Below, one piece after another: positions 5,001 to 47,484 of a stretch of 64,000 nucleotides of DNA. A program made the translations under genes and the position numbers. Each line of letters starts with the position of its first letter. Position 1 is the stretch's first letter. Below the pieces are notes generated by a model. That model ran no database searches, was not told the DNA's origin, and saw only the letters and a program-made list of their open reading frames with translations. This DNA is from Kiritimatiellia bacterium (GTDB lineage Bacteria > Verrucomicrobiota > Kiritimatiellia > JAAZAB01), in the NCBI GenBank assembly GCA_050944835.1, contig JBMNRV010000004.1, positions 12,695-76,694 of the forward strand, read 5' to 3'.

Positions 5001-5699
5001 TTGGAATTCGATGTTGCGGCGCCAAGCATTATGCCGAATCAAGCGCCGGTCCATGGCGCGGCAAAATTGGATTTACCCGCTAAAACCTTGACATTCCCTT
5101 TTGAAGTTAAATGCTCACCGGTCATCAATATTCGTGCATTGGATGCTAAAATTGTTGTGGATGGCGAATTTAACGAACCGGCTTGGGAAGATGCGGAATG
5201 TGCGGGAGATTTTGTTAATGCCACGGACGGCGCACCAGCGGCAAAGCGCACGGAAGCGCGCACGTTTTATACGTCCAATGCGTTATATATTGGATTTAAG
5301 TGTTACGACGAGAAAATGAAACTCAAAGTGGACTGCGCCAGATCAAACAGTGAATTCAACGATTTGGCGCTGAAAGACGACAGCATCGAAATTTACGTGC
5401 GTGCCGCTCCACGAGACGAATCAACTGATCAATATCAATATGTGCGCTTTGCATGTAATAGTGACTGTGTAAAGCGCGAAAGAGGCCCGAGTTGGAATGT
5501 GGCGGCAGCCAGGAAGGCGGACCACTGGACAGTGGAAGTGGAAATCCCGTTTAAGTCGCTTGGCGCCGTGCCGCGCCAAAGTGATTTCTGGGGCATCAAT
5601 TTTTGCCGTAATAATCCAGGATTGCCTTCCAGCTCATGGTCATATACGCATGGTACTTTTGCCAACCCTAAATTTTTTGGATGGGCCAGGTTTGAGTGA
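2082..5699 (+). CDS. Large secreted carbohydrate-active protein (1205 aa): N-terminal glycoside-hydrolase-like region of uncertain family, C-terminal CBM9-like carbohydrate-binding domain
   Basis: AGGAGG RBS 6 nt upstream and a signal peptide. C-terminal ~200 aa (DGEFNEPAWEDAECAGDF...TSNALYIGFKCYDE...WGINFCRNNP) matches the CBM9-like domain pattern. The N-terminal family could not be assigned by eye. Confidence 0.55.
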   Translation: MTNRSIRKAIAGVKIYTVMLVALALGAVCLNGGEADITYFMCIGQSMTLGEMASAGINTISHVPFYPDFAKEAAGKYGIRVCPYVDMWKVVTSSGDALLLNNPYWREVDADTTHHPEWLMIDENGKVKRPYWDTYHPGFQRSCTRHQSLTEAQIRGVLNHLSNGCGGVFIDNAGLADHFCWGEKYKLHDHPWPKPGGDGSNRRAKEMVFQAIKQFDPDKLCIINTRASGDMRTVSDAYMRESYIYASVQRPGTGNLADRRAWLNRNRDWKQFSEERAMFTRAFERGRPVCQNFFHDPCTDDEAAFHSFVWSKLWHPSIIWCAALHYWYTGFADCLARTDAMRVLYRIHNSLGDPLGEPAVTEEWGYRWFDNACLVINGVNMAQTLKVPVDSSAAALGELFTGEELTIQNGSVVLDMPPQTGRIIMPISSILSNYLCEIRMEAETIRRYLQAEQTAGNQALLALPATLECLRGIEQSADMMLAADSQAPDMLDDAINMAAAAQSLDANGMLQEPAHRLLNEARNLTTEDIKGFLRLTNCAPASIEIFRGGTNGEAIKMFMRSAMVSFTPFTHNLTAFLPFGEDAAYNLHVGQIFGFGASGETRLNWNKRKHARLLIPALPGIDVKDVYLRPDGFLAVRKTVDTPARQEIEAEIALAGHTSNKRIDNYRLLMKAGLETGLPFLNLEFCVVDDEKQICEAELRFDAGRYPMQVDSVHGAAPVQERNDQHLEWVYFMSNPQDRWGVLFLGDKLNFSQNTLLGKGQLKFAVAPLVARAGPFLEERIRNIRDYSSRVLSLTSGMYLKLVAPDEFWLDATNNSFQSVFIGCSNYTITSLEFAPEVGALGMRKDMARPIGNVAITRTIIREQDNAADFVFETPEGYEENDFISVRCRATATLDFGKRLVFERYLSRRLKYSFNATPPVAIEPLPEGGVKFAMKIKTGAPLTGAVHFAMSNAAYQVRPDQMDISLDANTERFLEFDVAAPSIMPNQAPVHGAAKLDLPAKTLTFPFEVKCSPVINIRALDAKIVVDGEFNEPAWEDAECAGDFVNATDGAPAAKRTEARTFYTSNALYIGFKCYDEKMKLKVDCARSNSEFNDLALKDDSIEIYVRAAPRDESTDQYQYVRFACNSDCVKRERGPSWNVAAARKADHWTVEVEIPFKSLGAVPRQSDFWGINFCRNNPGLPSSSWSYTHGTFANPKFFGWARFE

Positions 5700-35932: not shown

Positions 35933-36054
35933 TCCTCATAAACGGCATTTGAACATGTTCCTGCGCCCTGAAACGAACGCAGAAGAATGTTTAAGAGGAC
36001 AACGCTAGTCACAACTTGTTAGTTGTTATATCCCCTGTTACGGGTTCAGGCCTT

Positions 36055-38052
36055 ATGGATTTTTTTGAACATCAGGCGCGCGCCCGCCGCAACACCGGCC
36101 GATTGATTTTCTTTTACTGTCTGGCTGTGGTGTTGATCATAATCGCAGTTTACCTCGCCTGCGCCTTCACGTTTGGCATGTTGACTTCCTCTGACGAAGA
36201 AAGAGCCGACGGCGCAGGCCGCTCAACATCGCTATGGCATCCTGAATTGTTTACCCTTACTACTATCGGCACATTGTTGATTGTTCTGGGTGGCTCCACT
36301 TACAAAGTCATGCGTTTATCAGGCGGTGGCAGTTCGGTGGCGGCTATGCTTGGTGGACGCATGATTAACCGCAATACCACCAATCCAGACGAACGTAAAG
36401 TGCTGAACGTCGTCGAGGAAATGGCGATTGCCGCCGGCATCCCCGTGCCGCCGGTGTTTTTGCTCGCCAATGAATCAGGCATCAATGCCTTTGCCGCCGG
36501 ATTTGCGCCAACGGACGCAGTAATCGGCATCACCCGCGGCGCAATAAAGCAACTTTCCCGCGATGAATTGCAGGGCGTGATTGCCCATGAGTTCAGCCAC
36601 ATCTTCAACGGCGATATGCGCCTCAACATAAGGTTGATGGGAATCTTGCATGGCATCCTGCTGATCGGGATGCTTGGGTACTGGTTGCTGCGCAGCTCCT
36701 TCTACACCGATAACCATCGCTCTTCAAAGAAAGACAAAGACAAGTCGGGCGCGCAAACGGCCATATTGGGACTGGCGCTGTTTGTGATTGGATACATCGG
36801 TGTGTTCTTCGCCAAACTGATAAAAAGCGCCGTCTCGCGTCAACGCGAATTTCTGGCTGACGCCGCCGCAGTGCAGTTCACCCGCAATCCGGCCGGCATC
36901 GCCGGCGCATTAAAAAAAATCGGCGCCGCATCCGCCGGATCAAATATCAAGAACGATCACGCCGAAGAAGCCAGCCACCTTTTCTTCGCCAATGGTTTGG
37001 CTTCCGCTTGGTTTTCACTGATGGCAACCCACCCCCCACTGACAGAGCGCATCCGGCGGATTGATCCGTCCTTCACCGGCAAATTTTCCAAAATGGCCGA
37101 AACACCACCGCCCAAGTCAGGTCTGGACTCGCCAGTGACAGCTCGCCCTGCCCCAGAATTGGCATATGCGGCTATGGCGTCAAATACTGACACCCGCACC
37201 GTGTATGTCACTGCCCAGGATGTGGTGGCAACCGTGGGCGCGCCGCAACCGGCGCATTTACTATACTCGCAAAACCTTTTGGCAGCATTGCCCAGCGCAC
37301 TCCAAACCGCCGCGTATGAGCCAACCGGCGCATGCGCTCTCATCTATAACTTGCTAATGAGCAACGAAGGCGAAACTCGCACCCGTCAACAGCAAATCCT
37401 GAATAAATCCACCGACTCGGCGGTATGCCAGGCCGCAGCGGAACTGGCCGGCCCGGTTCGGGAGTTACCGGAGGAATTGCGCCTGCCGCTGGCCGATCTG
37501 GCCATTGCCACGCTCAAGGAACTGACACCGTCGCAATACAAGAATTTCCATAACAACGTCGAAAAACTGATTCTGGCCGACGAGCAAGTGGAACTGTTCG
37601 AATACGCATTATACCGTATGCTGCAGCGACATCTGGCGCCGTTTTTCACACAAACCCGACCGCCGGCCATTAGGTATTACAGTTTGAAGCCGCTACTGTC
37701 CCCATGCATTGACTTGCTTTCCTGCTTGGCATATTGGGGCGACGAAACCGGCGATGATGCCCATAAAAATTTTGAAGCAGGCTTGGCACGACTGGTTGCA
37801 ACTGGGGAATTCTCGGCAATCACCCCTACTATGCGTGACAGGGAAGATTGCGGAGTTAAGGTTCTGGATAAGGCTTTACAGCCATTAGCTCAGGCTGAAC
37901 CAGCTTTGAAAAAACGAATCATGGATGCCTGCGTGGCTTGTGTTGCCGCCAATGGCGCCGTGAATGCCGCTGAAGCTCAACTGTTGCGCGCCATCGGCGA
38001 CTCTCTGGATTGCCCTATACCACCGCTCATGGCCAAGGCTGTCCTAAACTAA
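36055..38052 (+). CDS. M48-family zinc metalloprotease (HtpX-like) with long C-terminal extension (TerB-like helical region)
   Basis: HEFSHIFNGD (HExxH), TM segments, and a classic LemA-M48 pairing. Start at ATG 36055 (the listed ORF starts at TTG 36016). Confidence 0.75.
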   Translation: MDFFEHQARARRNTGRLIFFYCLAVVLIIIAVYLACAFTFGMLTSSDEERADGAGRSTSLWHPELFTLTTIGTLLIVLGGSTYKVMRLSGGGSSVAAMLGGRMINRNTTNPDERKVLNVVEEMAIAAGIPVPPVFLLANESGINAFAAGFAPTDAVIGITRGAIKQLSRDELQGVIAHEFSHIFNGDMRLNIRLMGILHGILLIGMLGYWLLRSSFYTDNHRSSKKDKDKSGAQTAILGLALFVIGYIGVFFAKLIKSAVSRQREFLADAAAVQFTRNPAGIAGALKKIGAASAGSNIKNDHAEEASHLFFANGLASAWFSLMATHPPLTERIRRIDPSFTGKFSKMAETPPPKSGLDSPVTARPAPELAYAAMASNTDTRTVYVTAQDVVATVGAPQPAHLLYSQNLLAALPSALQTAAYEPTGACALIYNLLMSNEGETRTRQQQILNKSTDSAVCQAAAELAGPVRELPEELRLPLADLAIATLKELTPSQYKNFHNNVEKLILADEQVELFEYALYRMLQRHLAPFFTQTRPPAIRYYSLKPLLSPCIDLLSCLAYWGDETGDDAHKNFEAGLARLVATGEFSAITPTMRDREDCGVKVLDKALQPLAQAEPALKKRIMDACVACVAANGAVNAAEAQLLRAIGDSLDCPIPPLMAKAVLN

Positions 38053-38241: not shown

Positions 38242-39570
38242 ATGCGCCAGCAAGCCATCAAATGGCTCAACAATGAATTACCGCAATTAGTTGCACAGCA
38301 GGTACTGACGCCTGAAGCGGCAGAGCGTTTGCGGGCGCATTACGGGCTGCCCGCGCCAGCGCGCCCTGCCCGGCTGGGCGTGGTCATCTTCGCTATCCTC
38401 GGCACGCTGCTGATCGGCGCAGGCGCCATTCTCCTGCTAGCCCATAATTGGGATGCAATATCACGGCCAATGCGCACTGTCCTATCATTCCTGCCACTCA
38501 TCGCCGCGCAGGCGCTGGCGGCATGGGTCATACTCCGCCGGCCGCAGAGTCTGGCCTGGCGCGAAGGCGCCGGCGCCCTGCTCTTCCTGATGATCGGCGC
38601 AAGCATCGCCCTGATTGCCCAAACCTACAACATCTCCGGCGACACACCGCGATTCATCCTGACGTGGTCGCTGCTGGGCTTGCCAGTAGCCTATTTGCTT
38701 AACGCACTGATCCCGGCACTGCTCTATCTCTGGGGTATCACCGCTTGGGCTGGTTGCGTCCATGACACACCAAGCGCGGTCTTTGGCTACTGCCTGCTGG
38801 CTGCGCTGTTAATACCGCTGTTCGCGGTCTGGCTGCGTAAGGACCGTTACGCGGCCCGCCCAACAATTTTGCTCTGGGTGTTCTGCATCAGCGCCACAAT
38901 CGCCTGCATGGCAACCATGCCGTATGTTTTGCCCGAGATTTGGCTCTCCATTATTCACACCAGCTTGTTTGCGCTGATGTTCCTCGCCGGCGAATTCTGG
39001 TTCAACGACGTCGGCGGATTTTGGTCACGCCCGCTCCGCCACTTCGGCGCCGCCGGCATCCTGATCACATCATTCCTGCTCACCTTCAACTGGCCGTGGT
39101 CTGACATTGCTCGTTGGAATCAAATCCAATGGGAACGTTTACAGGCAGCCAGTAGCCATATACTGTCCAATGCTATACTGCTGGGCTTGTTGTTGCTGGC
39201 CACTCTATGCCTGCTGGTCACCAAGCCCCGGCGCAAGACGATTTCTGGTCTGCTGATGGGCTTGGCGCCGCTTCTGGCCATCGGCGGTTATTGCCTCCAT
39301 GTTCTCTCCAGCGCTTGTGCGTGGGGGGTAATCATATTTAACATCTACCTCCTCGCCATCGGCTTCTGGCTTCTGGTCACCGGCATCATGCGCAACCGGC
39401 AAGGCCGGATGAATGCAGGTTTGGTGACCGTGGGCGCGCTGATCGTCGCGCGCTTCTTTGACAGCGACTTGAGTTTCTTGCTGCGCGGTCTGATTTTCAT
39501 CGGGCTGGGCATTGCGCTCTTGGCAGCCAATCTGATCATCCTGCGCCGGAAAGGAGCGCCCCATGCATAA
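38242..39570 (+). CDS. DUF2157-type polytopic membrane protein
   Basis: Soluble N-terminus followed by ~10 TM helices. The GAGGAG RBS and the overlap with the downstream GDYXXLXY-type gene match the known DUF2157/GDYXXLXY pairing. Confidence 0.55.
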   Translation: MRQQAIKWLNNELPQLVAQQVLTPEAAERLRAHYGLPAPARPARLGVVIFAILGTLLIGAGAILLLAHNWDAISRPMRTVLSFLPLIAAQALAAWVILRRPQSLAWREGAGALLFLMIGASIALIAQTYNISGDTPRFILTWSLLGLPVAYLLNALIPALLYLWGITAWAGCVHDTPSAVFGYCLLAALLIPLFAVWLRKDRYAARPTILLWVFCISATIACMATMPYVLPEIWLSIIHTSLFALMFLAGEFWFNDVGGFWSRPLRHFGAAGILITSFLLTFNWPWSDIARWNQIQWERLQAASSHILSNAILLGLLLLATLCLLVTKPRRKTISGLLMGLAPLLAIGGYCLHVLSSACAWGVIIFNIYLLAIGFWLLVTGIMRNRQGRMNAGLVTVGALIVARFFDSDLSFLLRGLIFIGLGIALLAANLIILRRKGAPHA

Positions 39571-40138
39571 GCGCTATCTACTACTGGGCTTGGCCGTGAC
39601 CGTAGCGGTGCAACTTGCCGTGCCAGCCTTGATGATCGTCGGACATGAACGGGCCTTGCGGGAAGGCCAAGTGTTCAAATTCAAAACGCGCCCGGTAGAT
39701 CCCGCTGATGCCTTCCGCGGCCGTTATGTCTGGGTAAGCCTGGAGCCGGATATCGTCGAGCTGACCGATCCGGAACAATGGAATCCCAGCCGAAAAGTTT
39801 TCGCCGTTCTTGAAACCGACCCCGATGGCTTTGCGCTTGTGAAGCGGCTTGAGCGTTGCCAGCCAAAAGATGAACCATCCGTGCAGGTGCGAATGTTATG
39901 GCACGATCTTGATTCCGAGCAACAGAAAGTGCGCATCCAATGGCCAGGGCTGGAGCGTTACTATATGCCTGAAGATCAGGCGCCGGCCGCCGAAGCCGCC
40001 TACTTAAAAGCTAACCAATCCACTAACCATGCCTGCTATGTCACCGTCCGCGTCCGCGGCAAGCAAGCCCTCATTGAAAACCTGTTCATTGAGGATCAAC
40101 CAGTTCAGGACTGGTTGCGCAAGCAACCAAAACCATAA
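39563..40138 (+). CDS. GDYXXLXY-domain protein (variant motif GRYVWVSL)
   Basis: N-terminal TM. 'VDPADAFRGRYVWVSLEP' resembles the DPRDLFRGDYVxL core of the family. Confidence 0.5.
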   Translation: MHKRYLLLGLAVTVAVQLAVPALMIVGHERALREGQVFKFKTRPVDPADAFRGRYVWVSLEPDIVELTDPEQWNPSRKVFAVLETDPDGFALVKRLERCQPKDEPSVQVRMLWHDLDSEQQKVRIQWPGLERYYMPEDQAPAAEAAYLKANQSTNHACYVTVRVRGKQALIENLFIEDQPVQDWLRKQPKP

Positions 40139-40161: not shown

Positions 40162-40923
40162 ATGGACAAAACTTATACACGGGTTGCAATCATCACTGGC
40201 GCCACTTCCGGGATTGGAGAAGCCACAGCGCGGAAATTCGTTGCCGCCGGGTTCGGCGTAGTCGGCAATGGCCGTAATGCGGATAAACTATCCGCAATGG
40301 AAAAAGAATTGGGCAACCTGTTCGTGGGCGTCGCGGGCGATGCCTCCGATGAAGCAGTCATCAACAAACTTTTCACCACTGCCACTGAACGCTTCGGCCG
40401 CACAGCGGATATAGTAATCGCCAATGCCGGACGCGGATTGGGCGGCTCGGTGCAAAGCGCCGACTTATCACAATTTGAGGCTCGCCTCAGATTGAATGTG
40501 GCCGCCGCCCTGAAACTCATGCAGCAGGCAGCGCATGAAATGGTTGCGCGTCAGGCGCATCATTTCCCGCAAGCGGCCGCCGATATAGTGGTAATCGGTT
40601 CTGTGGTGGGACGCAACGTCTCACCTTACAGCGCGGTTTATGGCGCTACCAAGTTCGCCGTGCATTCCCTGGCTGAAGGGCTGCGCCGGGAGATCGGCCC
40701 TAAGGGCGTACGCGTTTCATTAGTTGAGCCGGGAACTCTCCTCAGCGGATTTCAGGCCGCGGCTGGCTACTCCGAGGAAATGTGCCAGGGATTTCATGAT
40801 AAATTCGGGCCACTGCTCATTGGCAAAGACGTGGCCGAAGCCATTTATTATATCGTTACCCAACCACCGCATGTCAACATCAGCGATATAGTAGTACGAC
40901 CGACACGCCAGGATTATCCCTGA
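40162..40923 (+). CDS. Short-chain dehydrogenase/reductase (SDR)
   Basis: TGATSGIGEATARKF Rossmann motif and a YGATK catalytic Tyr-Lys. Confidence 0.85.
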   Translation: MDKTYTRVAIITGATSGIGEATARKFVAAGFGVVGNGRNADKLSAMEKELGNLFVGVAGDASDEAVINKLFTTATERFGRTADIVIANAGRGLGGSVQSADLSQFEARLRLNVAAALKLMQQAAHEMVARQAHHFPQAAADIVVIGSVVGRNVSPYSAVYGATKFAVHSLAEGLRREIGPKGVRVSLVEPGTLLSGFQAAAGYSEEMCQGFHDKFGPLLIGKDVAEAIYYIVTQPPHVNISDIVVRPTRQDYP

Positions 40924-41020: not shown

Positions 41021-42538
41021 ATGCAACAGAAACAGATATTGCTTGGGAAAGGCACAAACCAGGTGTCATTATTGGCCCGCTACGCCAACCGGCACGGCCT
41101 GATCGCAGGCGCCACCGGCACGGGCAAAACAGTCTCGCTGATGCTGCTGGCGGAAGGATTTTCGCGGATGGGAGTGCCGGTTTTTATCGCCGACGTCAAG
41201 GGTGATGTCTCCGGGTTGGCGGTAGCCGGGACACCGAGCGAAAAACTCCTGGAGCGAGCACAACAGATTGGTGTTGAAAATTACACCGGCGAAGCAAACC
41301 CGGTTATCTTCTGGGATTTATTTGGTAAAACCGGACATCCAGTACGGGCGACAGTCAGCGAAATCGGCCCCAGCCTGCTGGCGCGCATACTGGAACTCAA
41401 CGACGTTCAGACAGGTATGCTGGAAATCGCGTTTAAGCTCGCAGATGACAATGGCTGGCTCTTGCTTGATTTAGATGATTTGCGCGCGCTGTTGAATTAC
41501 CTTGTTGACCACCGCCGGGAAGTCTCCCGTCAATATGGCTTGATCACTGCGCAATCCATAGCCGCCGTGCAACGCTCATTGCTGGCTCTGCAACGCGAGG
41601 GTGTAGAATCCTTCTTAGGTGAACCAGCGCTGGAACTCGGCGACTTAATGCGCACCGACCTCAGCGGACGCGGCATCATCAGCATCCTGGCCGCCGACCA
41701 GTTAATATTAAAGCCGCGGTTGTATTCCAGTCTGTTGCTGTGGTTACTCTCCGAATTGTTCGAAAATTTGCCGGAAGTCGGCGATCAGGAACAACCGCGC
41801 CTGGTATTCTTTTTCGATGAAGCCCATCTGCTTTTCGACGATGCCCCCGCCAGCCTGCGCCGCCGCGTAGAACAAGTTGTGCGCATTATTCGTTCCAAAG
41901 GCGTCGGCGTGTATTTTTGCTCACAATTCCCAGACGACATTCCCAACGAAATCCTTGGACAACTCGGCAATCGCATCCAGCACGCGCTGCGCGCTTTCAC
42001 ACCCCGTGACCAGAAAGCCGTTAAAACCGCCGCTGAAACTTTCGCCATCAACCCAAATCTGGATGTCGCAGCGGCCATTACGCAGTTGGCCGTGGGCGAA
42101 GCGCTTGTCTCCACGCTGCAGGAAAAAGGAATTCCCCTCCCGGTGGAGCGTGCCTTGATAAGTCCGCCGCGATGCCGCATGGGCGCGATTACCGAAGCCG
42201 AACGTGATGTAGTCCGTTCCCGCAGTCCGGTGGGCGCCAAATATGACCGCCCCGTCAACCGGGAATCAGCCTACGAAATGCTGGAACGACGGGCCATGCC
42301 AAGTGCCGCCCCGGCGCAGGCGCCGGCCCAGACGCCGGCGCCTTCGGCGCCTACTCCGCAACCGGCCAAAACGGAGAGCGGCCGGGGTAAATTCTGGGAA
42401 TTCCTCTGGGGCACTAAACGCCGTCAAGGTATGGTGGAAACACTAGCCAAACAGACAGCCCGAACTGTAGGCGGCCAGATCGGACGCAAGATCGTACGGG
42501 GTGTGCTGGGAGGAATCCAAGGCTCGCGCCGGCGTTAA
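41021..42538 (+). CDS. DUF853 / HerA-like P-loop ATPase (E. coli YjgR-type)
   Basis: GATGTGKT Walker A near the N-terminus, LVFFFDEAHLLF Walker B, ~505 aa like YjgR. The C-terminal Pro/Ala-rich tail is low complexity. Confidence 0.7.
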   Translation: MQQKQILLGKGTNQVSLLARYANRHGLIAGATGTGKTVSLMLLAEGFSRMGVPVFIADVKGDVSGLAVAGTPSEKLLERAQQIGVENYTGEANPVIFWDLFGKTGHPVRATVSEIGPSLLARILELNDVQTGMLEIAFKLADDNGWLLLDLDDLRALLNYLVDHRREVSRQYGLITAQSIAAVQRSLLALQREGVESFLGEPALELGDLMRTDLSGRGIISILAADQLILKPRLYSSLLLWLLSELFENLPEVGDQEQPRLVFFFDEAHLLFDDAPASLRRRVEQVVRIIRSKGVGVYFCSQFPDDIPNEILGQLGNRIQHALRAFTPRDQKAVKTAAETFAINPNLDVAAAITQLAVGEALVSTLQEKGIPLPVERALISPPRCRMGAITEAERDVVRSRSPVGAKYDRPVNRESAYEMLERRAMPSAAPAQAPAQTPAPSAPTPQPAKTESGRGKFWEFLWGTKRRQGMVETLAKQTARTVGGQIGRKIVRGVLGGIQGSRRR

Positions 42539-42629
42539 CCCGATTTGTGATTGCAAAAATAAGCGGCTTCGGGTAGCTTAACCTTGTTGCCGGATGGTCC
42601 GGTATGATTGTTTTAAACCTTAAAAGCGC

Positions 42630-42848
42630 ATGATTAATATGAGCAAACAACCTGAAATACCGCCACAGGAATGGGAACTCGGTGACTGGGAGGCGGCATT
42701 GACAATCAATGTCGGCACAGCTTATGTCTGCCGTGCATGTAGCAATCTGGTGATGGTGACTAAGGGCGGTGTCGGCACACTGGACTTGGTCTGTTGCGGC
42801 GTGCCCATGGAAAAAATTGAAAAAAATCAGCCAGAAGGAACAGCCTGA
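42630..42848 (+). CDS. Desulforedoxin-like small Fe(Cys)4 protein (single domain)
   Basis: YVCRACSNLVMVTKGGVGTLDLVCCGVPM matches the desulforedoxin / Dfx N-domain pattern Y-x-C-x-x-C-G...G-G-x-L-x-C-C-G-x-x-M. Confidence 0.55.
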   Translation: MINMSKQPEIPPQEWELGDWEAALTINVGTAYVCRACSNLVMVTKGGVGTLDLVCCGVPMEKIEKNQPEGTA

Positions 42849-43093
42849 TGTCAACCATCAAACCCAAGGGAGCCACATACATCTGTCCAGTCTGCGGCGC
42901 CGAGATCATTGTGTTGGCGCCGTGCAGCGGCTGTTTCATCCCACGCTGCTGTGACAAACCGATGGAGCTGCGCCCACGGCGCGTCCAATTTTACGTCTGC
43001 CCGGTCTGCAAAGCCGAAATTGCGGCGCTACACCAGACAAAACCCGATAGTTTTCATCCACGCTGCTGCGGGCAGGATATGCGCCCGGCTTGA
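42848..43093 (+). CDS. Tandem (two-domain) desulforedoxin-like protein
   Basis: Two repeats: YICPVCGAEIIVL...PRCCDKPM and YVCPVCKAEIAAL...PRCCGQDM. The start overlaps the upstream stop (TGATG). Confidence 0.55.
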   Translation: MSTIKPKGATYICPVCGAEIIVLAPCSGCFIPRCCDKPMELRPRRVQFYVCPVCKAEIAALHQTKPDSFHPRCCGQDMRPA

Positions 43094-43133: not shown

Positions 43134-43865
43134 CTATGACTTCTCCTTTCCCAGATCATTAGGCATCGTTTGTGCGGTAATATACGCCTGTTGTGGATGA
43201 TTGGGCGTAGCGGGAAAGGCCAGATTGAGCTGTTTCTCCTTGACCATAGGCGATAGATACTGCGCCTGTAACGGCTTTGGCTTTCGATTCACGAGCGCCG
43301 CCAAAGCGCCAAGTGTCACATACTGTTCGCTGCAAATCTTTCTGATCACCGAACGCATCTGTTCTCGACTAATTCGTTGTTTCTTGCGTGGAAGCTGTGC
43401 AATAGCTTCGATTTCGCGTAGCTTCTCTGGCATGAGATGCTCAAGGCTATCAATCAAAGGTTCACTGTGATAATTTGACACCACTCGTCCCTGTCTGTCG
43501 CGAAGGAGTTCCGCCTCCTTATATGTAGAGCTACCGCCGTTAAGTGGGGAGCTGCCGTCGTTAAGTGGGGAGCTGCCGCCGTTAAGTGGGGAGCTCCCAC
43601 CGTTAAGTGGGGAGCTCGTCACCTTACCGAACACGTCGTCGGGATGAGGTAAATCAAGCCCCTTCAGGTGATACACGGCGCCGCGTCCGCGGCCAGCTAA
43701 CGTCAGCAGTTGTTTATTATGGACCAACTGGTGCAGAATCCGTGACAGGTCGGCGGGATGCTTCCCTGTCAACTGTGCCAGGCGCGCTCCCTCATCGGCC
43801 GCAAGCAGACATACCATCCCCATTACCACGCCGATAATCATCTGAATTTTGAAGATTGCTTTCAT
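43134..43865 (-). CDS. Hypothetical protein with two winged-HTH-like segments flanking an SSPLNGG heptad repeat; possibly a remnant of a larger RecG-C-terminal-HTH / AlbA_2-type regulator
   Basis: N-terminal hydrophobic stretch, then ...LAQLTGKHPADLSRILHQLV...GRGRGAVYHL. The C-terminus ...LGALAALVNRKPKPLQAQYLSPMVKEKQLNLAFPATPNHPQQAYIT resembles the end of AlbA_2/HTH-type 'putative transcriptional regulator' proteins. Confidence 0.45.
   Translation of the reverse strand: MKAIFKIQMIIGVVMGMVCLLAADEGARLAQLTGKHPADLSRILHQLVHNKQLLTLAGRGRGAVYHLKGLDLPHPDDVFGKVTSSPLNGGSSPLNGGSSPLNDGSSPLNGGSSTYKEAELLRDRQGRVVSNYHSEPLIDSLEHLMPEKLREIEAIAQLPRKKQRISREQMRSVIRKICSEQYVTLGALAALVNRKPKPLQAQYLSPMVKEKQLNLAFPATPNHPQQAYITAQTMPNDLGKEKS
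43531..43618. repeat. 4 x 21-bp near-perfect tandem repeat (ccgNcgttaagtggggagctS), in-frame (SSPLNGG x4) inside the CDS at 43134-43865
   Basis: Read directly from the sequence. Confidence 0.9.
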
Positions 43866-43901: not shown

Positions 43902-43991
43902 GGTGCGAGCCGCACTGGCGGTGCGAGCCGCACTGGCGGTGCGAGCCGCACTGGCGGTGCGAGCCGCACTGGCAGTGCGAGCCGCACTGGC
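43902..43991. repeat. 5 x 18-bp perfect tandem repeat (ggtgcgagccgcactggc; last copy agtgcg...) in the 5' leader 37 bp upstream of the start codon of the 43134-43865 gene
   Basis: Read directly. The repeat is in frame with the downstream ATG, contains no start codon, and has an in-frame stop at 44013-44015. Confidence 0.9.
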
Positions 43992-44102
43992 AGTGATGAA
44001 CCCCGGATTGGATTAAACCGCCAAAGCGCCAGCAACTAATTTCTTTCCCCTACCTTGCCGTCTTGGCGGTTTATCTATTCCTCGCTCTTCGGAGAGAACA
44101 AG

Positions 44103-45869
44103 CTACTTGGCGGTTTCAATCGGCTTGACTGCATATATTCCGCGTGCCGACCGGACTTCAATGGCCAACTGGTCATTTGCGCCGGTCCGCGCCAGCCATT
44201 CGAGTTCCACCTTACCAATCCGCGCCGGGAGCGGATCAATCGCCGTCTCCCGCCGCCCCTGTAATATTTCCATCGCTCCCGAAGACTTTAGGCACACATT
44301 AACTTCGGCATGGGGAACGACGCTGGCGCTCATCCGGGTGATATAAGTTGGGAGCTTGCCGGTATTCCTGATCACGGCCTTGACACGGTATATGCCGTCG
44401 GCTATCGGAACGGCGCTCGCCGCGCTGATTTCAATTTCAGGCGCCCAGGTCATGTATTCCAGGCAGAAGGCGACACACTTGGCGCACAATTCGGCTCTTT
44501 CCTCGGGAGGCGGATTGACGTGGCCGATGATATTAAATCCGCCTATTTCAACTTTTCCAAGCTGGGGATGGTCAAACGGTTTCCATTCATGAAACACGCC
44601 GCCATCGGGATGTTGGTCGTGCCAACGGAGCATTGCCAGGCCGAGCGGTTCCGGAAAATCCGGACCAATAACGTCTATGGACGTGTAATCGAACATAGGA
44701 AACGCCTGTCTGGAATTAAAACCCAGGTAATTATAAATCATGCCAAGCTCAAACACTAACGCGAGCTTGCCTTGGCGTTCATAACACCAATTCCAATAGG
44801 AGCCCGTAGTTTCGCCTTGCGGTTTGCCGGTTTTGATTTCCTCGTAACTGCTTAGCAGCGGCAGACCGGTCATGGCCTGCGCCTTTTCTCCGATCAGCGC
44901 GATCAACCGTGCGTCTTCGTCGTATTCGGCGGCCGTTTTAATGGCAGCCGTCGGATAAAAAATGGCCTGATTGCCGCCATGGAAATCCAAAACACCGACA
45001 ATATTTGTATGGCCAATAATAAAATCGGCCATGGCGCGCGTCTCCGGCTCGGACAACGGATATTTGCCCTGCCCCAGGAAATGGGGATAGGGCCGCCAAT
45101 TGGCAGTCGGAAAATCCCGGTTGAAGTCGCAACGCGCTTGAGACTGGTTCCGCGCCGTATCAAGTTCGCCGCCGTCCCAATCGTGGATCATTCCCTCGTC
45201 CACCAGGTAATAATACTCACCGGCGATTTGCGTGAGACGGCGGGTAAGCACAAGGCGGCTGTCATTGGTGGAAAGCACACACAGCCCGTCCGGACTCGGC
45301 CAACGCATGGACAGGATTTTGCCGTCACCGTCAATGTCTTCGGGCGTGATGCTGTTCTTTTGCGGCGCATCCACATACTTGCTGCGACACCATGAATTAT
45401 TGGAGGTGCGCAGAACATATTCCGCCCCATCAACGGCCAACCGCGGAATAATGTAAACCACCCTTTTGCCTAGCAGAGAGCGCAAAGCATCATCCCGGGA
45501 ATAATTGGCGCACAAATGCTCCGCCAGAACCAAGCAAAGCCGGCTACCCGTCATTTCAACGGCGTGCAAGTTGGCTTGGAACACGAAAGCCGGGCGATAC
45601 TCCAATGGAATCCCGTCCGAACGCTCCGCCGCAATTTCAAGGAGCCAGACATTGCGTCCCTCGGGAGTGACGGCCATGGATTGCAAGGAAACAAGATTCG
45701 GATAAGCCGCGGCCAGCGCCTGCACCTTGGCGGTCAATTGCGCATAATTGTCAAATCCGCCATAACTGGACGCGGCGGCCGACTTGATATTTTCAGGTTT
45801 TACCGGTTGCATTCCAGCCGCAAGCGCCGCGGCAACCAAAAACATAATATGCCATGATTTCATATGCAT
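44103..45869 (-). CDS. M14-family zinc carboxypeptidase, secreted
   Basis: YDNYAQLTAKVQALAAAYPNLVSLQSMAVTPEGRNVW (M14 N-region); HAVEM (HxxE zinc ligands); IIPRLAVDGAEY; DFNRDFP; SEPETRAMADFI; DFHGGNQAIFYP. Start moved to MHMKSW because the listed N-terminal extension overlaps the upstream gene in another frame. Confidence 0.7.
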   Translation of the reverse strand: MHMKSWHIMFLVAAALAAGMQPVKPENIKSAAASSYGGFDNYAQLTAKVQALAAAYPNLVSLQSMAVTPEGRNVWLLEIAAERSDGIPLEYRPAFVFQANLHAVEMTGSRLCLVLAEHLCANYSRDDALRSLLGKRVVYIIPRLAVDGAEYVLRTSNNSWCRSKYVDAPQKNSITPEDIDGDGKILSMRWPSPDGLCVLSTNDSRLVLTRRLTQIAGEYYYLVDEGMIHDWDGGELDTARNQSQARCDFNRDFPTANWRPYPHFLGQGKYPLSEPETRAMADFIIGHTNIVGVLDFHGGNQAIFYPTAAIKTAAEYDEDARLIALIGEKAQAMTGLPLLSSYEEIKTGKPQGETTGSYWNWCYERQGKLALVFELGMIYNYLGFNSRQAFPMFDYTSIDVIGPDFPEPLGLAMLRWHDQHPDGGVFHEWKPFDHPQLGKVEIGGFNIIGHVNPPPEERAELCAKCVAFCLEYMTWAPEIEISAASAVPIADGIYRVKAVIRNTGKLPTYITRMSASVVPHAEVNVCLKSSGAMEILQGRRETAIDPLPARIGKVELEWLARTGANDQLAIEVRSARGIYAVKPIETAK

Positions 45870-45885
45870 ATTTTTTGCCTTTTTC

Positions 45886-47484
45886 CTAGTAGACATTGAA
45901 GAACGTGCCTCTCCGGATATATTCGTAAGCGCCCATATCCACAACACCGTAGCGGATGCGCCGGCGGCCGTCCAGATCAAGCTGCCCATCCGCCACCCAC
46001 TGGTTATCGCCTTGATCAATGCAGGGCGAATCGGATTTCAGACGGAAATCGCCGGCCGCGTAATTTGCAAACCCCGCATCGCCAGCAATGTTATTGGCGC
46101 CGATAGTTATAGCATTGGTGTTATACGCACATGAATTATACACCACGCCAGTGTAATAGCCGTAATCCACCACGCTGTAAATATCGTTTCCCGGATGAAC
46201 AGCGTTGCCCCTATTGCTTTGAGCAATGGTGTTATAGATGCCGGAACCGCCGTGACGCACACTTACACCGCCATAGACGCTCCCCAATGATTTATTGCTG
46301 ACTACGGTACAGTTGATGATTTTGCCATAGTTTGCTGTATAGAACAAAACCGCCGCGCCATTAGCATCATAAGCGGTATTGCCCGCCACCAGAGAATTTT
46401 GAAGCGTTCCGCCCACAGTTATATACGCCCCGGCGCCGCGACCGGCATGATTGCCGATGAGATGACTGCCGCTGACAAAACAATTTGCATTTAAATACGC
46501 TCCGCCACCGTGGCCATCTCCGTTCGTCGCATAGTTCCAACTGATATTACAGTTACTGATCACTATATACGGATCCTGGAGATAGCAATAAATCCCACCA
46601 CCGTATGATGCCTCGTTAGACACAATTGTGCAGCGCGCCACTGTGGCGGTGCCCCAGATAAACAGCCCGCCGCCGTAATTGGCTGACCAGTTATTGGCAA
46701 TGACACTGTCCGCTACCGCCACCTCAACCAGCGACGTCCCATTGCGCATGGCCATCCCGCCCCCGCCGTTCCCCGCCGACGTTATATAAGAATAATTATT
46801 GCTGATAAAGCATCTGCGCACGACCCCCTTCATGAACGTATAAATTCCCCCGCCGGAAGCCTTGGCATGATTTTCATAAATCTGACAGTCCACAATCAGC
46901 CCATTATTCAAGCCCACTCCTCCACCTGTCCAGCCCGACTCCATATTCACGCTGTTATAGCTCACCACGCAGTTGCTCAACATGCCGCCGCCGTCGACCT
47001 TAACCCCACCCGCGTCCTGCGTAGACCGATTCCGGGTGATAATGCAGTTTTTTACGGTCCCGCCCTTAGTGGTTATCTGCACTCCGCCGCCGGCCGCACC
47101 GGCGCCGTTGGTGATGGTAAACCCGTCCACCACTGCATCCGCGTGATTGAGGTAAAAACAGCGGTAGGTGTCCCGGCCGTTCACAAAAGTCTCTGTCCGG
47201 CCGTACAAACTGGTGACAATAATGCCGGAACCTACCGTAACCACATCATTCAGATTATACGTGCCGTTGGACACCAACACCACGTCGCCAGGCTCATTCG
47301 CCTTGGCTACTCCCTGGTTGATGCTGGCCACGGCGTTAGCCCAGGAATCACCGGAGTTCCCGTCATTCCCAGCCAACGACACGTAAACGGTTTTCGCCCA
47401 TACTCCGCAAGTGGCCACCAAAAGACAGCCCAGCCAAACACATCCGCGCAACAACCGACTCCAATCCAATAATGCGACCTTCAT
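45886..47484 (-). CDS. Secreted right-handed parallel beta-helix repeat protein with C-terminal DMGAYE tail; carries the conserved MKVALLD... N-terminal leader
   Basis: Gly-rich helix rungs (GGGVQITT, GGGIYCY, GHGGGAYL). C-terminus VVDMGAYEYIRRGTFFNVY. Paralog of the 28-1665 protein. Confidence 0.7.
   Translation of the reverse strand: MKVALLDWSRLLRGCVWLGCLLVATCGVWAKTVYVSLAGNDGNSGDSWANAVASINQGVAKANEPGDVVLVSNGTYNLNDVVTVGSGIIVTSLYGRTETFVNGRDTYRCFYLNHADAVVDGFTITNGAGAAGGGVQITTKGGTVKNCIITRNRSTQDAGGVKVDGGGMLSNCVVSYNSVNMESGWTGGGVGLNNGLIVDCQIYENHAKASGGGIYTFMKGVVRRCFISNNYSYITSAGNGGGGMAMRNGTSLVEVAVADSVIANNWSANYGGGLFIWGTATVARCTIVSNEASYGGGIYCYLQDPYIVISNCNISWNYATNGDGHGGGAYLNANCFVSGSHLIGNHAGRGAGAYITVGGTLQNSLVAGNTAYDANGAAVLFYTANYGKIINCTVVSNKSLGSVYGGVSVRHGGSGIYNTIAQSNRGNAVHPGNDIYSVVDYGYYTGVVYNSCAYNTNAITIGANNIAGDAGFANYAAGDFRLKSDSPCIDQGDNQWVADGQLDLDGRRRIRYGVVDMGAYEYIRRGTFFNVY

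Follow-up and report, generated by a model that had tools for sequence, protein, structure and literature searches.

Two short overlapping genes in the 64-kb window (the whole stretch of DNA that was analysed) encode three domains that, judging from comparative analysis of their sequences, are homologous to desulforedoxin (Dx): a single domain in the product of ORF1, and two further domains, joined in one chain, in the product of ORF2. Desulforedoxin is a metalloprotein familiar from textbooks, and what is known of it comes mainly from one homodimer of 36 aa and from its occurrence as a domain of superoxide reductase (SOR) and of desulforubrerythrin; to our knowledge, its physiological role is still unclear. 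The gene pair described here does not amount to a novel type of system. The metal-binding domain is a known one, and what had gone unrecognised is its widely conserved arrangement as three domains encoded by two genes. In this arrangement, which is found in at least four bacterial phyla, a naturally occurring single-chain Dx 'dimer' would be linked to a partner protein that carries the third Dx domain. We consider it probable that the two proteins act together, as a heteromer with Fe(Cys)4 sites, in carrying electrons in the manner of rubredoxin to enzymes that detoxify O2, NO or H2O2.

Gene anatomy and domain identity

Rereading of the ORFs from the sequence reproduced the coordinates (42630-43093) and the gene anatomy given in the first-pass annotation of this DNA, which had been prepared from the sequence alone and had described a translationally coupled pair of desulforedoxin-like genes (Table 1). 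When read from the ATG at 42630, ORF1 encodes a protein of 72 aa (MINMSKQPEIPPQEWELGDWEAALTINVGTAYVCRACSNLVMVTKGGVGTLDLVCCGVPMEKIEKNQPEGTA). However, the start is probably the alternative ATG at 42639 (M4), yielding a 69-aa product, since M4 is nearly invariant among 83 relatives and its position is that at which the homologues begin. The product of ORF2 has 81 aa (MSTIKPKGATYICPVCGAEIIVLAPCSGCFIPRCCDKPMELRPRRVQFYVCPVCKAEIAALHQTKPDSFHPRCCGQDMRPA). The TGA of ORF1 (42846-48) and the ATG of ORF2 (42848-50) have an A in common, forming the sequence TGATG (42846-42850), and the genes of relatives likewise overlap by 4 nt or 1 nt, in agreement with translational coupling.

Table 1. Features of the gene pair and its surroundings in the window.
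Feature	Coordinates	Strand	Description
M48 peptidase	36016-38052
DUF2157	38242-39570
GDYXXLXY protein	39563-40138
SDR	40162-40923
HerA_C/DUF853 (YjgR-like) ATPase	41021-42538	+	PF05872, 709 bits
Terminator-like hairpin and T-run	42588-42614	+	7-bp stem (4 GC), 3-nt loop, tail TGATTGTTTT; consensus match only
ORF1	42630-42848	+	72 aa; desulforedoxin-like protein, one domain
N-terminal extension of ORF1	42663-42713	+	aa 12-28, EWELGDWEAALTINVG; family-specific
ORF1 Dx core	42714-42818	+	aa 29-63; C34, C37, C55, C56, M60
Shine-Dalgarno-like GAAGGAA	42834-42840	+	7 nt 5' of the ORF2 ATG, within the end of ORF1; read from the sequence
ORF2	42848-43093	+	81 aa; two desulforedoxin-like domains in tandem, single chain
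ORF2 Dx domain 1	42869-42973	+	aa 8-42; C13, C16, C34, C35, M39
ORF2 Dx domain 2	42980-43090	+	aa 45-81; C51, C54, C73, C74, M78
243-aa repeat protein	43134-43865	-	convergent with the pair
M14 carboxypeptidase	44103-46019	-

Comparison with the nearest relatives gave dN/dS values of 0.14-0.19 for ORF1 and 0.11-0.25 for ORF2, and by this measure both are real genes under purifying selection. The possibility of one frameshifted or split gene was ruled out by this selection and by the recurrence of the same two-gene layout with stop/start overlap in 56 loci. A terminator-like hairpin placed between the stop codon of the HerA_C gene (42538) and ORF1 suggests that the pair forms a separate transcription unit. 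A promoter scan revealed no sigma-70 promoter around the pair, and an Rfam scan no RNA families in the entire window.

The ligand motif reads C34-x2-C37-x17-C55C56-x3-M60 in ORF1, while ORF2 contains C13-x2-C16-x17-C34C35-x3-M39 and C51-x2-C54-x18-C73C74-x3-M78. A six-frame scan of the window for CxxC-x14-19-CC-x3-M detected 3 copies, all within these two genes. The first-pass annotation was thus right in counting three Dx motifs, but the exact form that it gave them (C-x-x-C-G...C-C-G) does not hold (CRACS in ORF1; CCD and CCG in the ORF2 domains); across the family, the consensus reads CPVCGAE...PRCCN..M. Two additional cysteines of ORF2 domain 1 (C26 and C29) were considered as a fourth site and rejected, their conservation being limited to the closest relatives.

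The homology of all three domains to Dx, proposed earlier from the motifs, is borne out by several lines of evidence. In searches with the Pfam model PF06397 (Desulfoferrod_N; gathering score 23 bits), which the first-pass annotation had named as a check, both ORF1 (33.9 bits, E 2.4e-8) and ORF2 (29.6 bits, E 5.2e-7) scored above the cut-off. The halves of ORF2 taken separately scored 22.0 (domain 1) and 16.9 bits (domain 2), both under it. The same model matched 53/53 tandem relatives and 82/83 ORF1 relatives (E<=0.01), and the NCBIfam models TIGR00319 and TIGR00320 gave matches under their cut-offs only. ORF1 also matched PDB chains of desulfoferrodoxin (Dfx) and Dx (1dfx/1cfw) directly at the sequence level (E about 1e-3). 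In hhalign comparisons with Dx of Desulfovibrio gigas (the sequence used being consistent with the 1cfw_A match), ORF1 reached 95.8%, and the first and second halves of ORF2 97.1% and 96.7%, respectively. The two halves, described in the first-pass annotation as two domains fused in one chain, matched each other at 99.7%, and each of them matched the ORF1 family at 98%.

Structure predictions point in the same direction. The ORF1 model is confident in the Dx core only (aa 29-63, pLDDT about 89), and its top 6 Foldseek matches were Dfx N-domains and 1dxg (probability 0.98-0.99); overall, the best matches in the structure search were 1dxg/1cfw and Dfx N-domains. The AlphaFold2 (AF2) model of ORF2 (pLDDT 87.6, pTM 0.68) contains a beta-hairpin spanning the domain junction (E40-45/E47-50), and these features indicate a fixed two-domain unit. 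With essentially no linker between the domains, the protein may plausibly be a covalent Dx pseudo-dimer.

The canonical spacing of Dx domains is CXXCX15CC (PMC3116461). In the proteins analysed here the spacer comprises 17 residues in ORF1 (126/126 relatives) and 17 and 18 residues in domains 1 and 2 of ORF2 (family mode 17), which corresponds in the hhalign alignments to a loop insertion of 2-3 residues relative to Dx. The PF06397 score, the ligand pattern and the fold are therefore those of Dx, and the X15 spacing is not.

The Dx core of ORF1 is preceded by a segment in which W20, I26 and G29 are invariant and W15, T25 and V28 are conserved at >=90%. The motif W..(E)W..[AS][LW]TI.VG occurs in 126/126 ORF1 relatives, and a Pfam search of the segment, which is not known to have homologues elsewhere, gave no match. 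AF2 predicts a helix at low confidence (pLDDT about 65). Since the segment is strongly conserved yet left unplaced by AF2 in the monomer, we regard it as a candidate partner-binding element, through which ORF1 probably docks with either the tandem protein or a partner common to both.

Distribution of the pair and its gene neighbourhoods

A word-index search retrieved only 5 clusters of tandem proteins and 13 of ORF1 proteins, while an exhaustive profile search with the tandem family among 1.84 billion representatives yielded 78 matches (E<=1e-3). Some 55 of them are two-domain proteins in full length (76-95 aa), and canonical Dx or Dfx is absent from the 78. The 53 tandem proteins that were aligned share 28-77% identity with the window protein, and their sole invariant columns are C13, C16, C34, C35, M39, C51, C54, C73, C74 and M78. 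All 8 cysteines are thus kept, so that the spacing whose loss in homologues would, according to the first-pass annotation, have spoken for generic Zn ribbons is conserved. A C-terminal -AA terminates 27/53 of the tandem proteins, the window copy not being one of them. The ORF1 profile retrieved 210 clusters at E<=1e-5, all named 'hypothetical protein' or (JGI) 'desulfoferrodoxin-like iron-binding protein'; among ORF1 relatives C34, C37, C55 and M60 are invariant and C56 is present at >=90%, a small clade having Cys-His in place of Cys-Cys (C56 replaced by His). Neither Pfam nor NCBIfam has a model dedicated to either family, the names given in the sources go no further than 'hypothetical' or generic labels, and a literature search, with most subscription journals outside its coverage, found no published natural tandem Dx or gene pair of this kind.

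When genomes representing GTDB species, one for each, were scanned with an alignment of 12 tandem sequences, 50 loci were identified, and pairs were detected with HMMs for both families on six-frame ORFs, the remaining cases being checked by hand. Among 58 non-redundant loci, an ORF1-type gene lies directly 5' of the tandem-type gene in 56, which answers the earlier suggestion that the pair be sought in related genomes. These include one locus where the pair is cut by the contig end (L021) and one where the tandem gene was left uncalled in the source annotation (L060); ORF1 is missing from L046 and L048. Conversely, the tandem gene was present in 7/7 loci reached via ORF1 proteins. Where both genes were called, there is either a 4-nt overlap or an 11-nt gap between them. 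The hosts belong to Kiritimatiellia, Verrucomicrobiota-labelled bins, Planctomycetota (including Brocadiaceae/Brocadiia), Lentisphaerae/Victivallales (Lentisphaerota), Thermodesulfobacteriota/Deltaproteobacteria and Deferrisomatales. The pair spans four or more phyla, the anammox Brocadiaceae among them, and every titled record that contains it is a MAG or an uncultured bacterium.

On these sequence grounds, the pair is a conserved, translationally coupled module. That each gene leads to the other, that the two are coupled and that both are under purifying selection speaks for a unit of two proteins in fixed stoichiometry. Covariation between the two proteins (MI with APC, 51 pairs) was also considered as evidence of contacts and rejected: the top pairs (ORF1 L21/L50/L14 with ORF2 F30/F48/F69, z 4-5.5) track a single clade split.

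Neighbours of the pair were counted as phmmer matches to six-frame ORFs in the 58 loci, many of whose contigs are short, and were verified with Pfam. The recurrent neighbours all share the strand of the pair. The most frequent are an ODP/flavodiiron-like metallo-beta-lactamase (12/58 loci), hybrid cluster protein (Hcp/Prismane; 11/58) and a rubrerythrin-like protein, whose gene follows the pair (11/58). These are accompanied by Methyltransf_28 (9/58), a TrxR/NROR-like Pyr_redox_2 protein encoded directly 3' of the pair (8/58), an Rrf2 regulator (8/58), a 4Fe-4S ferredoxin-like protein of the AF_0155 type (8/58), a geranylgeranyl-reductase-like flavoprotein (7/58), a cupin (6/58) and ferritin (5/58). 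One or more of Hcp, ODP, the rubrerythrin-like protein and Pyr_redox_2 occur in at least 33 of the 58 loci. In the clearest operons, the gene order is Rrf2, Fer4, ODP, ORF1, tandem, cupin, Hcp at one locus (L062), Rrf2, Fer4, an 89-aa Cys-rich ORF, ORF1, tandem, YgbA_NO, cupin, Hcp in two others (L004/L005), and ORF1, tandem, Pyr_redox_2 in a further two (L059/L061). No redox partners of the Hcp, ODP, rubrerythrin-like or Pyr_redox_2 types are encoded within 6 kb of the pair in the window. An SDR gene accompanies the pair in 6/58 loci, confined to the closest relatives. The wide conservation of the module, the N-terminal segment of ORF1 and the O2/NO-stress operon context in other genomes had all been missed by the first-pass annotation.

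Proposed role and alternative explanations

In the proposed mechanism, the three Dx-type sites of the two products, with four Cys each (CxxC...CC), would most likely bind iron, as in desulforedoxin. The product of ORF2, as a head-to-tail fusion of two Dx domains, would form a compact unit equivalent to a covalent Dx 'dimer', to which ORF1 would add a third centre and a docking segment. Acting like rubredoxin, this small one-electron carrier would be reduced by a ferredoxin-like protein or by a flavoreductase that uses NAD(P)H, and would in turn reduce cytoplasmic detoxifying enzymes of anaerobes, namely flavodiiron/ODP protein, hybrid cluster protein and rubrerythrin.

It has been reported that flavodiiron proteins (FDPs) and rubrerythrins require a small rubredoxin-type carrier together with NADH:rubredoxin oxidoreductase (NROR), the donor being unidentified in many organisms, and that Dx-type centres show redox activity at potentials near 0 mV (+240 mV in desulforubrerythrin) (PMC7482061). 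Hcp belongs to the core of the regulons that respond to NO and nitrite, its gene usually forming an operon with that of its reductase (hcr) or of a ferredoxin-like protein (frdX), and NsrR is a member of the Rrf2 family (PMC1274295). If the pair does act as a carrier for these enzymes, it would fill the donor gap for FDPs and rubrerythrins in many anaerobes (PMC7482061), and it would supply testable candidates in environmentally important uncultured groups, i.e. anammox bacteria, Kiritimatiellia and Thermodesulfobacteriota. The pair could also be used, as a scaffold provided by nature, to examine the tuning of Fe(Cys)4 redox centres by covalent linkage. These results should be useful to specialists in the oxidative and nitrosative stress of anaerobes or in Fe-S bioinorganic chemistry, and are not paradigm-changing. 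Several observations speak against an electron carrier, namely the lack of a redox partner near the window pair, the spacer of 17-18 residues, the Cys-His clade and the zinc-ribbon matches described below.

A more far-reaching version of this proposal may be put forward only tentatively, and we think it rather doubtful. The two proteins would associate through the N-terminal segment of ORF1 into a hetero-oligomer with 3 Fe(Cys)4 centres (6 if ORF1 dimerises like Dx), a 'rubredoxin-type wire' without described precedent. In anaerobes poor in rubredoxin, among them the anammox Brocadiaceae and Kiritimatiellia, such a complex would be the long-missing physiological reductant of Hcp, flavodiiron proteins and rubrerythrins, and this would be the first physiological role assigned to Dx-type proteins.

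The sequence does not reveal which metal is bound, and Zn is common in Cys4 knuckles. The proteins might accordingly be structural zinc ribbons, that is small Zn-binding adaptors, regulators or nucleic-acid-binding proteins with no redox role. The tandem members do show sub-threshold Pfam matches to zinc-ribbon families (LysW-type 36/53, CoiA_N 27/53, HVO_2753 17/53), one of them bears the JGI label 'RNA polymerase subunit RPC12/RpoP', and both the spacer, unlike that of canonical Dx, and the scores of the separate ORF2 halves, below the PF06397 cut-off, would suit such proteins. However, the sole invariant residues are those of the Dx/Dfx signature, the vicinal Cys-Cys with Met at +4; PF06397 alone matches all tandem members (best E-value 8e-21), and the closest structural matches are Dx and Dfx. 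Moreover, the repeated same-strand linkage to genes of Hcp, FDP, rubrerythrin and flavoreductase would be unexpected for a generic Zn ribbon, and we therefore hold this explanation to be unlikely.

Somewhat less likely still is a role as a sensor of NO or iron, as a scavenger, or as an iron donor in the repair of metal centres, in which nitrosative stress would lead to the consumption or nitrosylation of the Fe(Cys)4 sites, with no cycling of electrons. The operons in which the pair is embedded among Rrf2, Fer4, ODP, cupin and Hcp genes, the adjoining YgbA_NO gene in two loci (L004/L005) and the ferritin gene near the pair in 5 loci would fit this idea, and three metal sites per module together with the C-terminal -AA of 27/53 tandem proteins could fit a protein regulated by turnover. 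Nevertheless, the window copy has neither the -AA ending nor NO-related neighbours, and no observation made here demands sacrificial chemistry. A cycling electron carrier fits better, because the 8 loci with an adjoining Pyr_redox_2 gene and the 11 with a rubrerythrin-like gene display the classic layout of reductase, carrier and terminal enzyme.

The YjgR-like ATPase beside the pair in the window, recognised by the first-pass annotation, was identified correctly by its family (see Table 1), but the functional link implied by the adjacency found no support. It is highly improbable that the pair is an accessory of this protein, e.g. a metal-binding adaptor of the NTPase: the ATPase gene does end 92-101 nt 5' of ORF1 on the same strand, an arrangement repeated in four other loci (L009-L012), but this amounts to only 5/58 loci, all from close Kiritimatiellia or Verrucomicrobiota-labelled relatives (69-75% identity), the pairs of other lineages have no HerA_C gene, and the lineage-limited adjacency and the terminator-like hairpin between the genes lead us not to regard the ATPase as a functional partner. 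A defence-system interpretation was likewise rejected, PADLOC giving no match for the pair and only generic HerA/mad8 matches for the ATPase.

Comparison with known Fe(Cys)4 proteins

Desulforedoxin of D. gigas (PDB 1DXG/1CFW) forms a homodimer of 36-aa chains that contains two Fe(Cys)4 centres. The pair shares with it the CxxC...CC ligand pattern with vicinal cysteines, the Met four residues past the CC, the GGxG loop (kept in ORF1) and the presence of two domains per functional unit (in ORF2). It differs from Dx in that (i) the ORF2 domains are fused in a single chain with essentially no linker, (ii) the spacer comprises 17-18 residues as opposed to 15, (iii) a third domain resides on an obligatory partner protein (ORF1) with a conserved 28-aa N-terminal extension, and (iv) the pair occurs in PVC bacteria and in Thermodesulfobacteriota MAGs.

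Rubredoxin (PF00301) carries two CxxCG knuckles about 30 residues apart, or about 12 in short-type Rd domains. Neither ORF1 nor ORF2 matched PF00301 at E<=1 in the Pfam search, and PDB rubredoxins were reached at E 1.5-2.2 over one knuckle only. The pair thus belongs to another fold family, has a ligand geometry that includes vicinal Cys, and distributes three centres over two chains, where rubredoxin has a single centre in a single chain. The likeness that we propose to the system of rubredoxin and NADH:rubredoxin oxidoreductase lies in a small Fe(Cys)4 carrier being encoded beside Pyr_redox_2, FDP/ODP or rubrerythrin-like genes (PMC7482061). Desulforubrerythrin of Campylobacter jejuni combines a Dx domain, rubrerythrin and a rubredoxin domain in one fusion protein, and shows that a Dx-type centre can be an electron entry point for a rubrerythrin diiron site (redox data in PMC7482061). 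By contrast, the Dx domains of the pair are free-standing, and the rubrerythrin-like protein encoded after it in 11 loci is the product of a separate gene.

In sequence, ORF1 is most closely related (36-38% identity) to the N-terminal Dx domain of desulfoferrodoxin/2Fe-superoxide reductase (Dx-SOR; PF06397 + PF01880; 1DFX, 2JI1), and the tandem family has a CCN..M variant that is similar to Dfx of D. baarsii. The pair differs from Dx-SOR in having no SOR catalytic domain: TIGR00320, with a cut-off of 146.9 bits, gave 26.8 and 21.7 bits over its N-terminal part only. The proteins are therefore not SORs, and a six-frame scan of the window for the SOR domain or signature gave no match, as the first-pass annotation had noted in finding no SOR partner. 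Canonical Dfx is only an occasional neighbour of the pair in other genomes: a canonical 2Fe-SOR is encoded about 650 bp 5' of the pair at one locus (L038), and an SOR is present at another (L023).

Protein-level variation within the family

In a subclade of Thermodesulfobacteriota/Deferrisomatales, the ORF1 homologues (single desulforedoxin-like domain) of loci L051, L052, L053, L055 and L056, together with protein P0207, contain histidine in place of cysteine as the fourth ligand and read ..EPRCHGKPM.. at this position. This substitution implies a Cys3His site in these proteins, and their tandem partners (ORF2 type, two such domains in one chain) have kept all 8 cysteines.

The tandem proteins also share a C-terminal feature. 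Of 53 aligned, 34 end in -A and 27 in -AA (P0019-P0077; loci L004-L062), with endings such as LEAA, RLAA and PKAA. The ORF2 product of the window terminates in -RPA (at 43090) and its closest relatives in -PAA. By analogy, the conserved dipeptide is reminiscent of ssrA-like ClpXP degrons.

Multi-domain desulforedoxin architectures other than the ORF2-type tandem exist. Two metagenomic proteins among the hits of a tandem-family profile search show this. P0092 (195 aa) is built of four desulforedoxin-like repeats, and its final one is C-H type. P0088 (80 aa) is a different tandem whose spacers are of canonical length.

Gene neighbourhoods of homologous loci

In Thermodesulfobacteriota the gene order is Methyltransf_28, ORF1 homologue, tandem gene, rubrerythrin-like gene and GGR-like flavoprotein gene. 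A Methyltransf_28 gene immediately 5' of the ORF1 homologue was found in L060, L042, L043, L049, L050, L054, L057 and L058; its overlap with the latter was read in L060, a locus with called genes (see table). Methyltransf_28 is the NDUFAF7-like protein arginine methyltransferase family. Alongside this neighbour, we noted that an arginine directly precedes the vicinal cysteines in the tandem consensus (PRCCN).

L004 and L005 carry a cysteine-rich ORF (MKCPGQDMRYW...CPACNKPVEFF...CSNCGYKF...CAEWCPYAEQC) within an Rrf2-Fer4-...-Hcp operon (Hcp, hybrid cluster protein); Pfam has no family on record for it. The superoxide reductase (SOR) encoded near the pair in L038 is composed of a desulforedoxin domain and a SOR domain with EKHIP...CNLHG, and a second SOR-signature ORF is present in L023, on the opposite strand. 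L046, from a Candidatus Subterrananammoxibius MAG, is one of two loci in which the tandem gene has no ORF1 partner.

Surroundings of the pair in the window

The DUF2157 and GDYXXLXY genes, another conserved gene pair, lie 5' of the SDR and HerA_C genes. Two tandem DNA repeats are located just 3' of the ORF1/tandem pair.

Features of the window and of homologous loci
Feature	Location	Remarks
Tandem gene	L046 5956-6255	
Rubrerythrin, rubredoxin-like C-terminus	L046 about 7286	between tandem gene and short desulforedoxin
Canonical short desulforedoxin	L046 9737-9904	spacer 15, ..YYCSICGQKIKVMEGGVGTLVCCGEDM..; 3.5 kb downstream of tandem gene
Methyltransf_28 gene / ORF1 homologue	L060 3868-5004 / 5001-5195	overlap of 4 nt at ORF1 start
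89-aa Cys-rich ORF	L004 141-410; L005 3818-4087	overlaps start of ORF1 homologue
Canonical 2Fe-superoxide reductase	L038 991-1365	~650 bp upstream of pair
Genes for a DUF2157 membrane protein and a GDYXXLXY protein	window 38242-40138	overlapping (39563 vs 39570)
Convergent 243-aa ORF	window 43134-43865	minus strand; weak Fic-like_C match
21-nt repeat unit, x4.2	window 43528-43616	encodes SSPLNGG heptads in 243-aa ORF
18-nt repeat unit, x5.2	window 43902-43995	98% matches; upstream of 243-aa ORF
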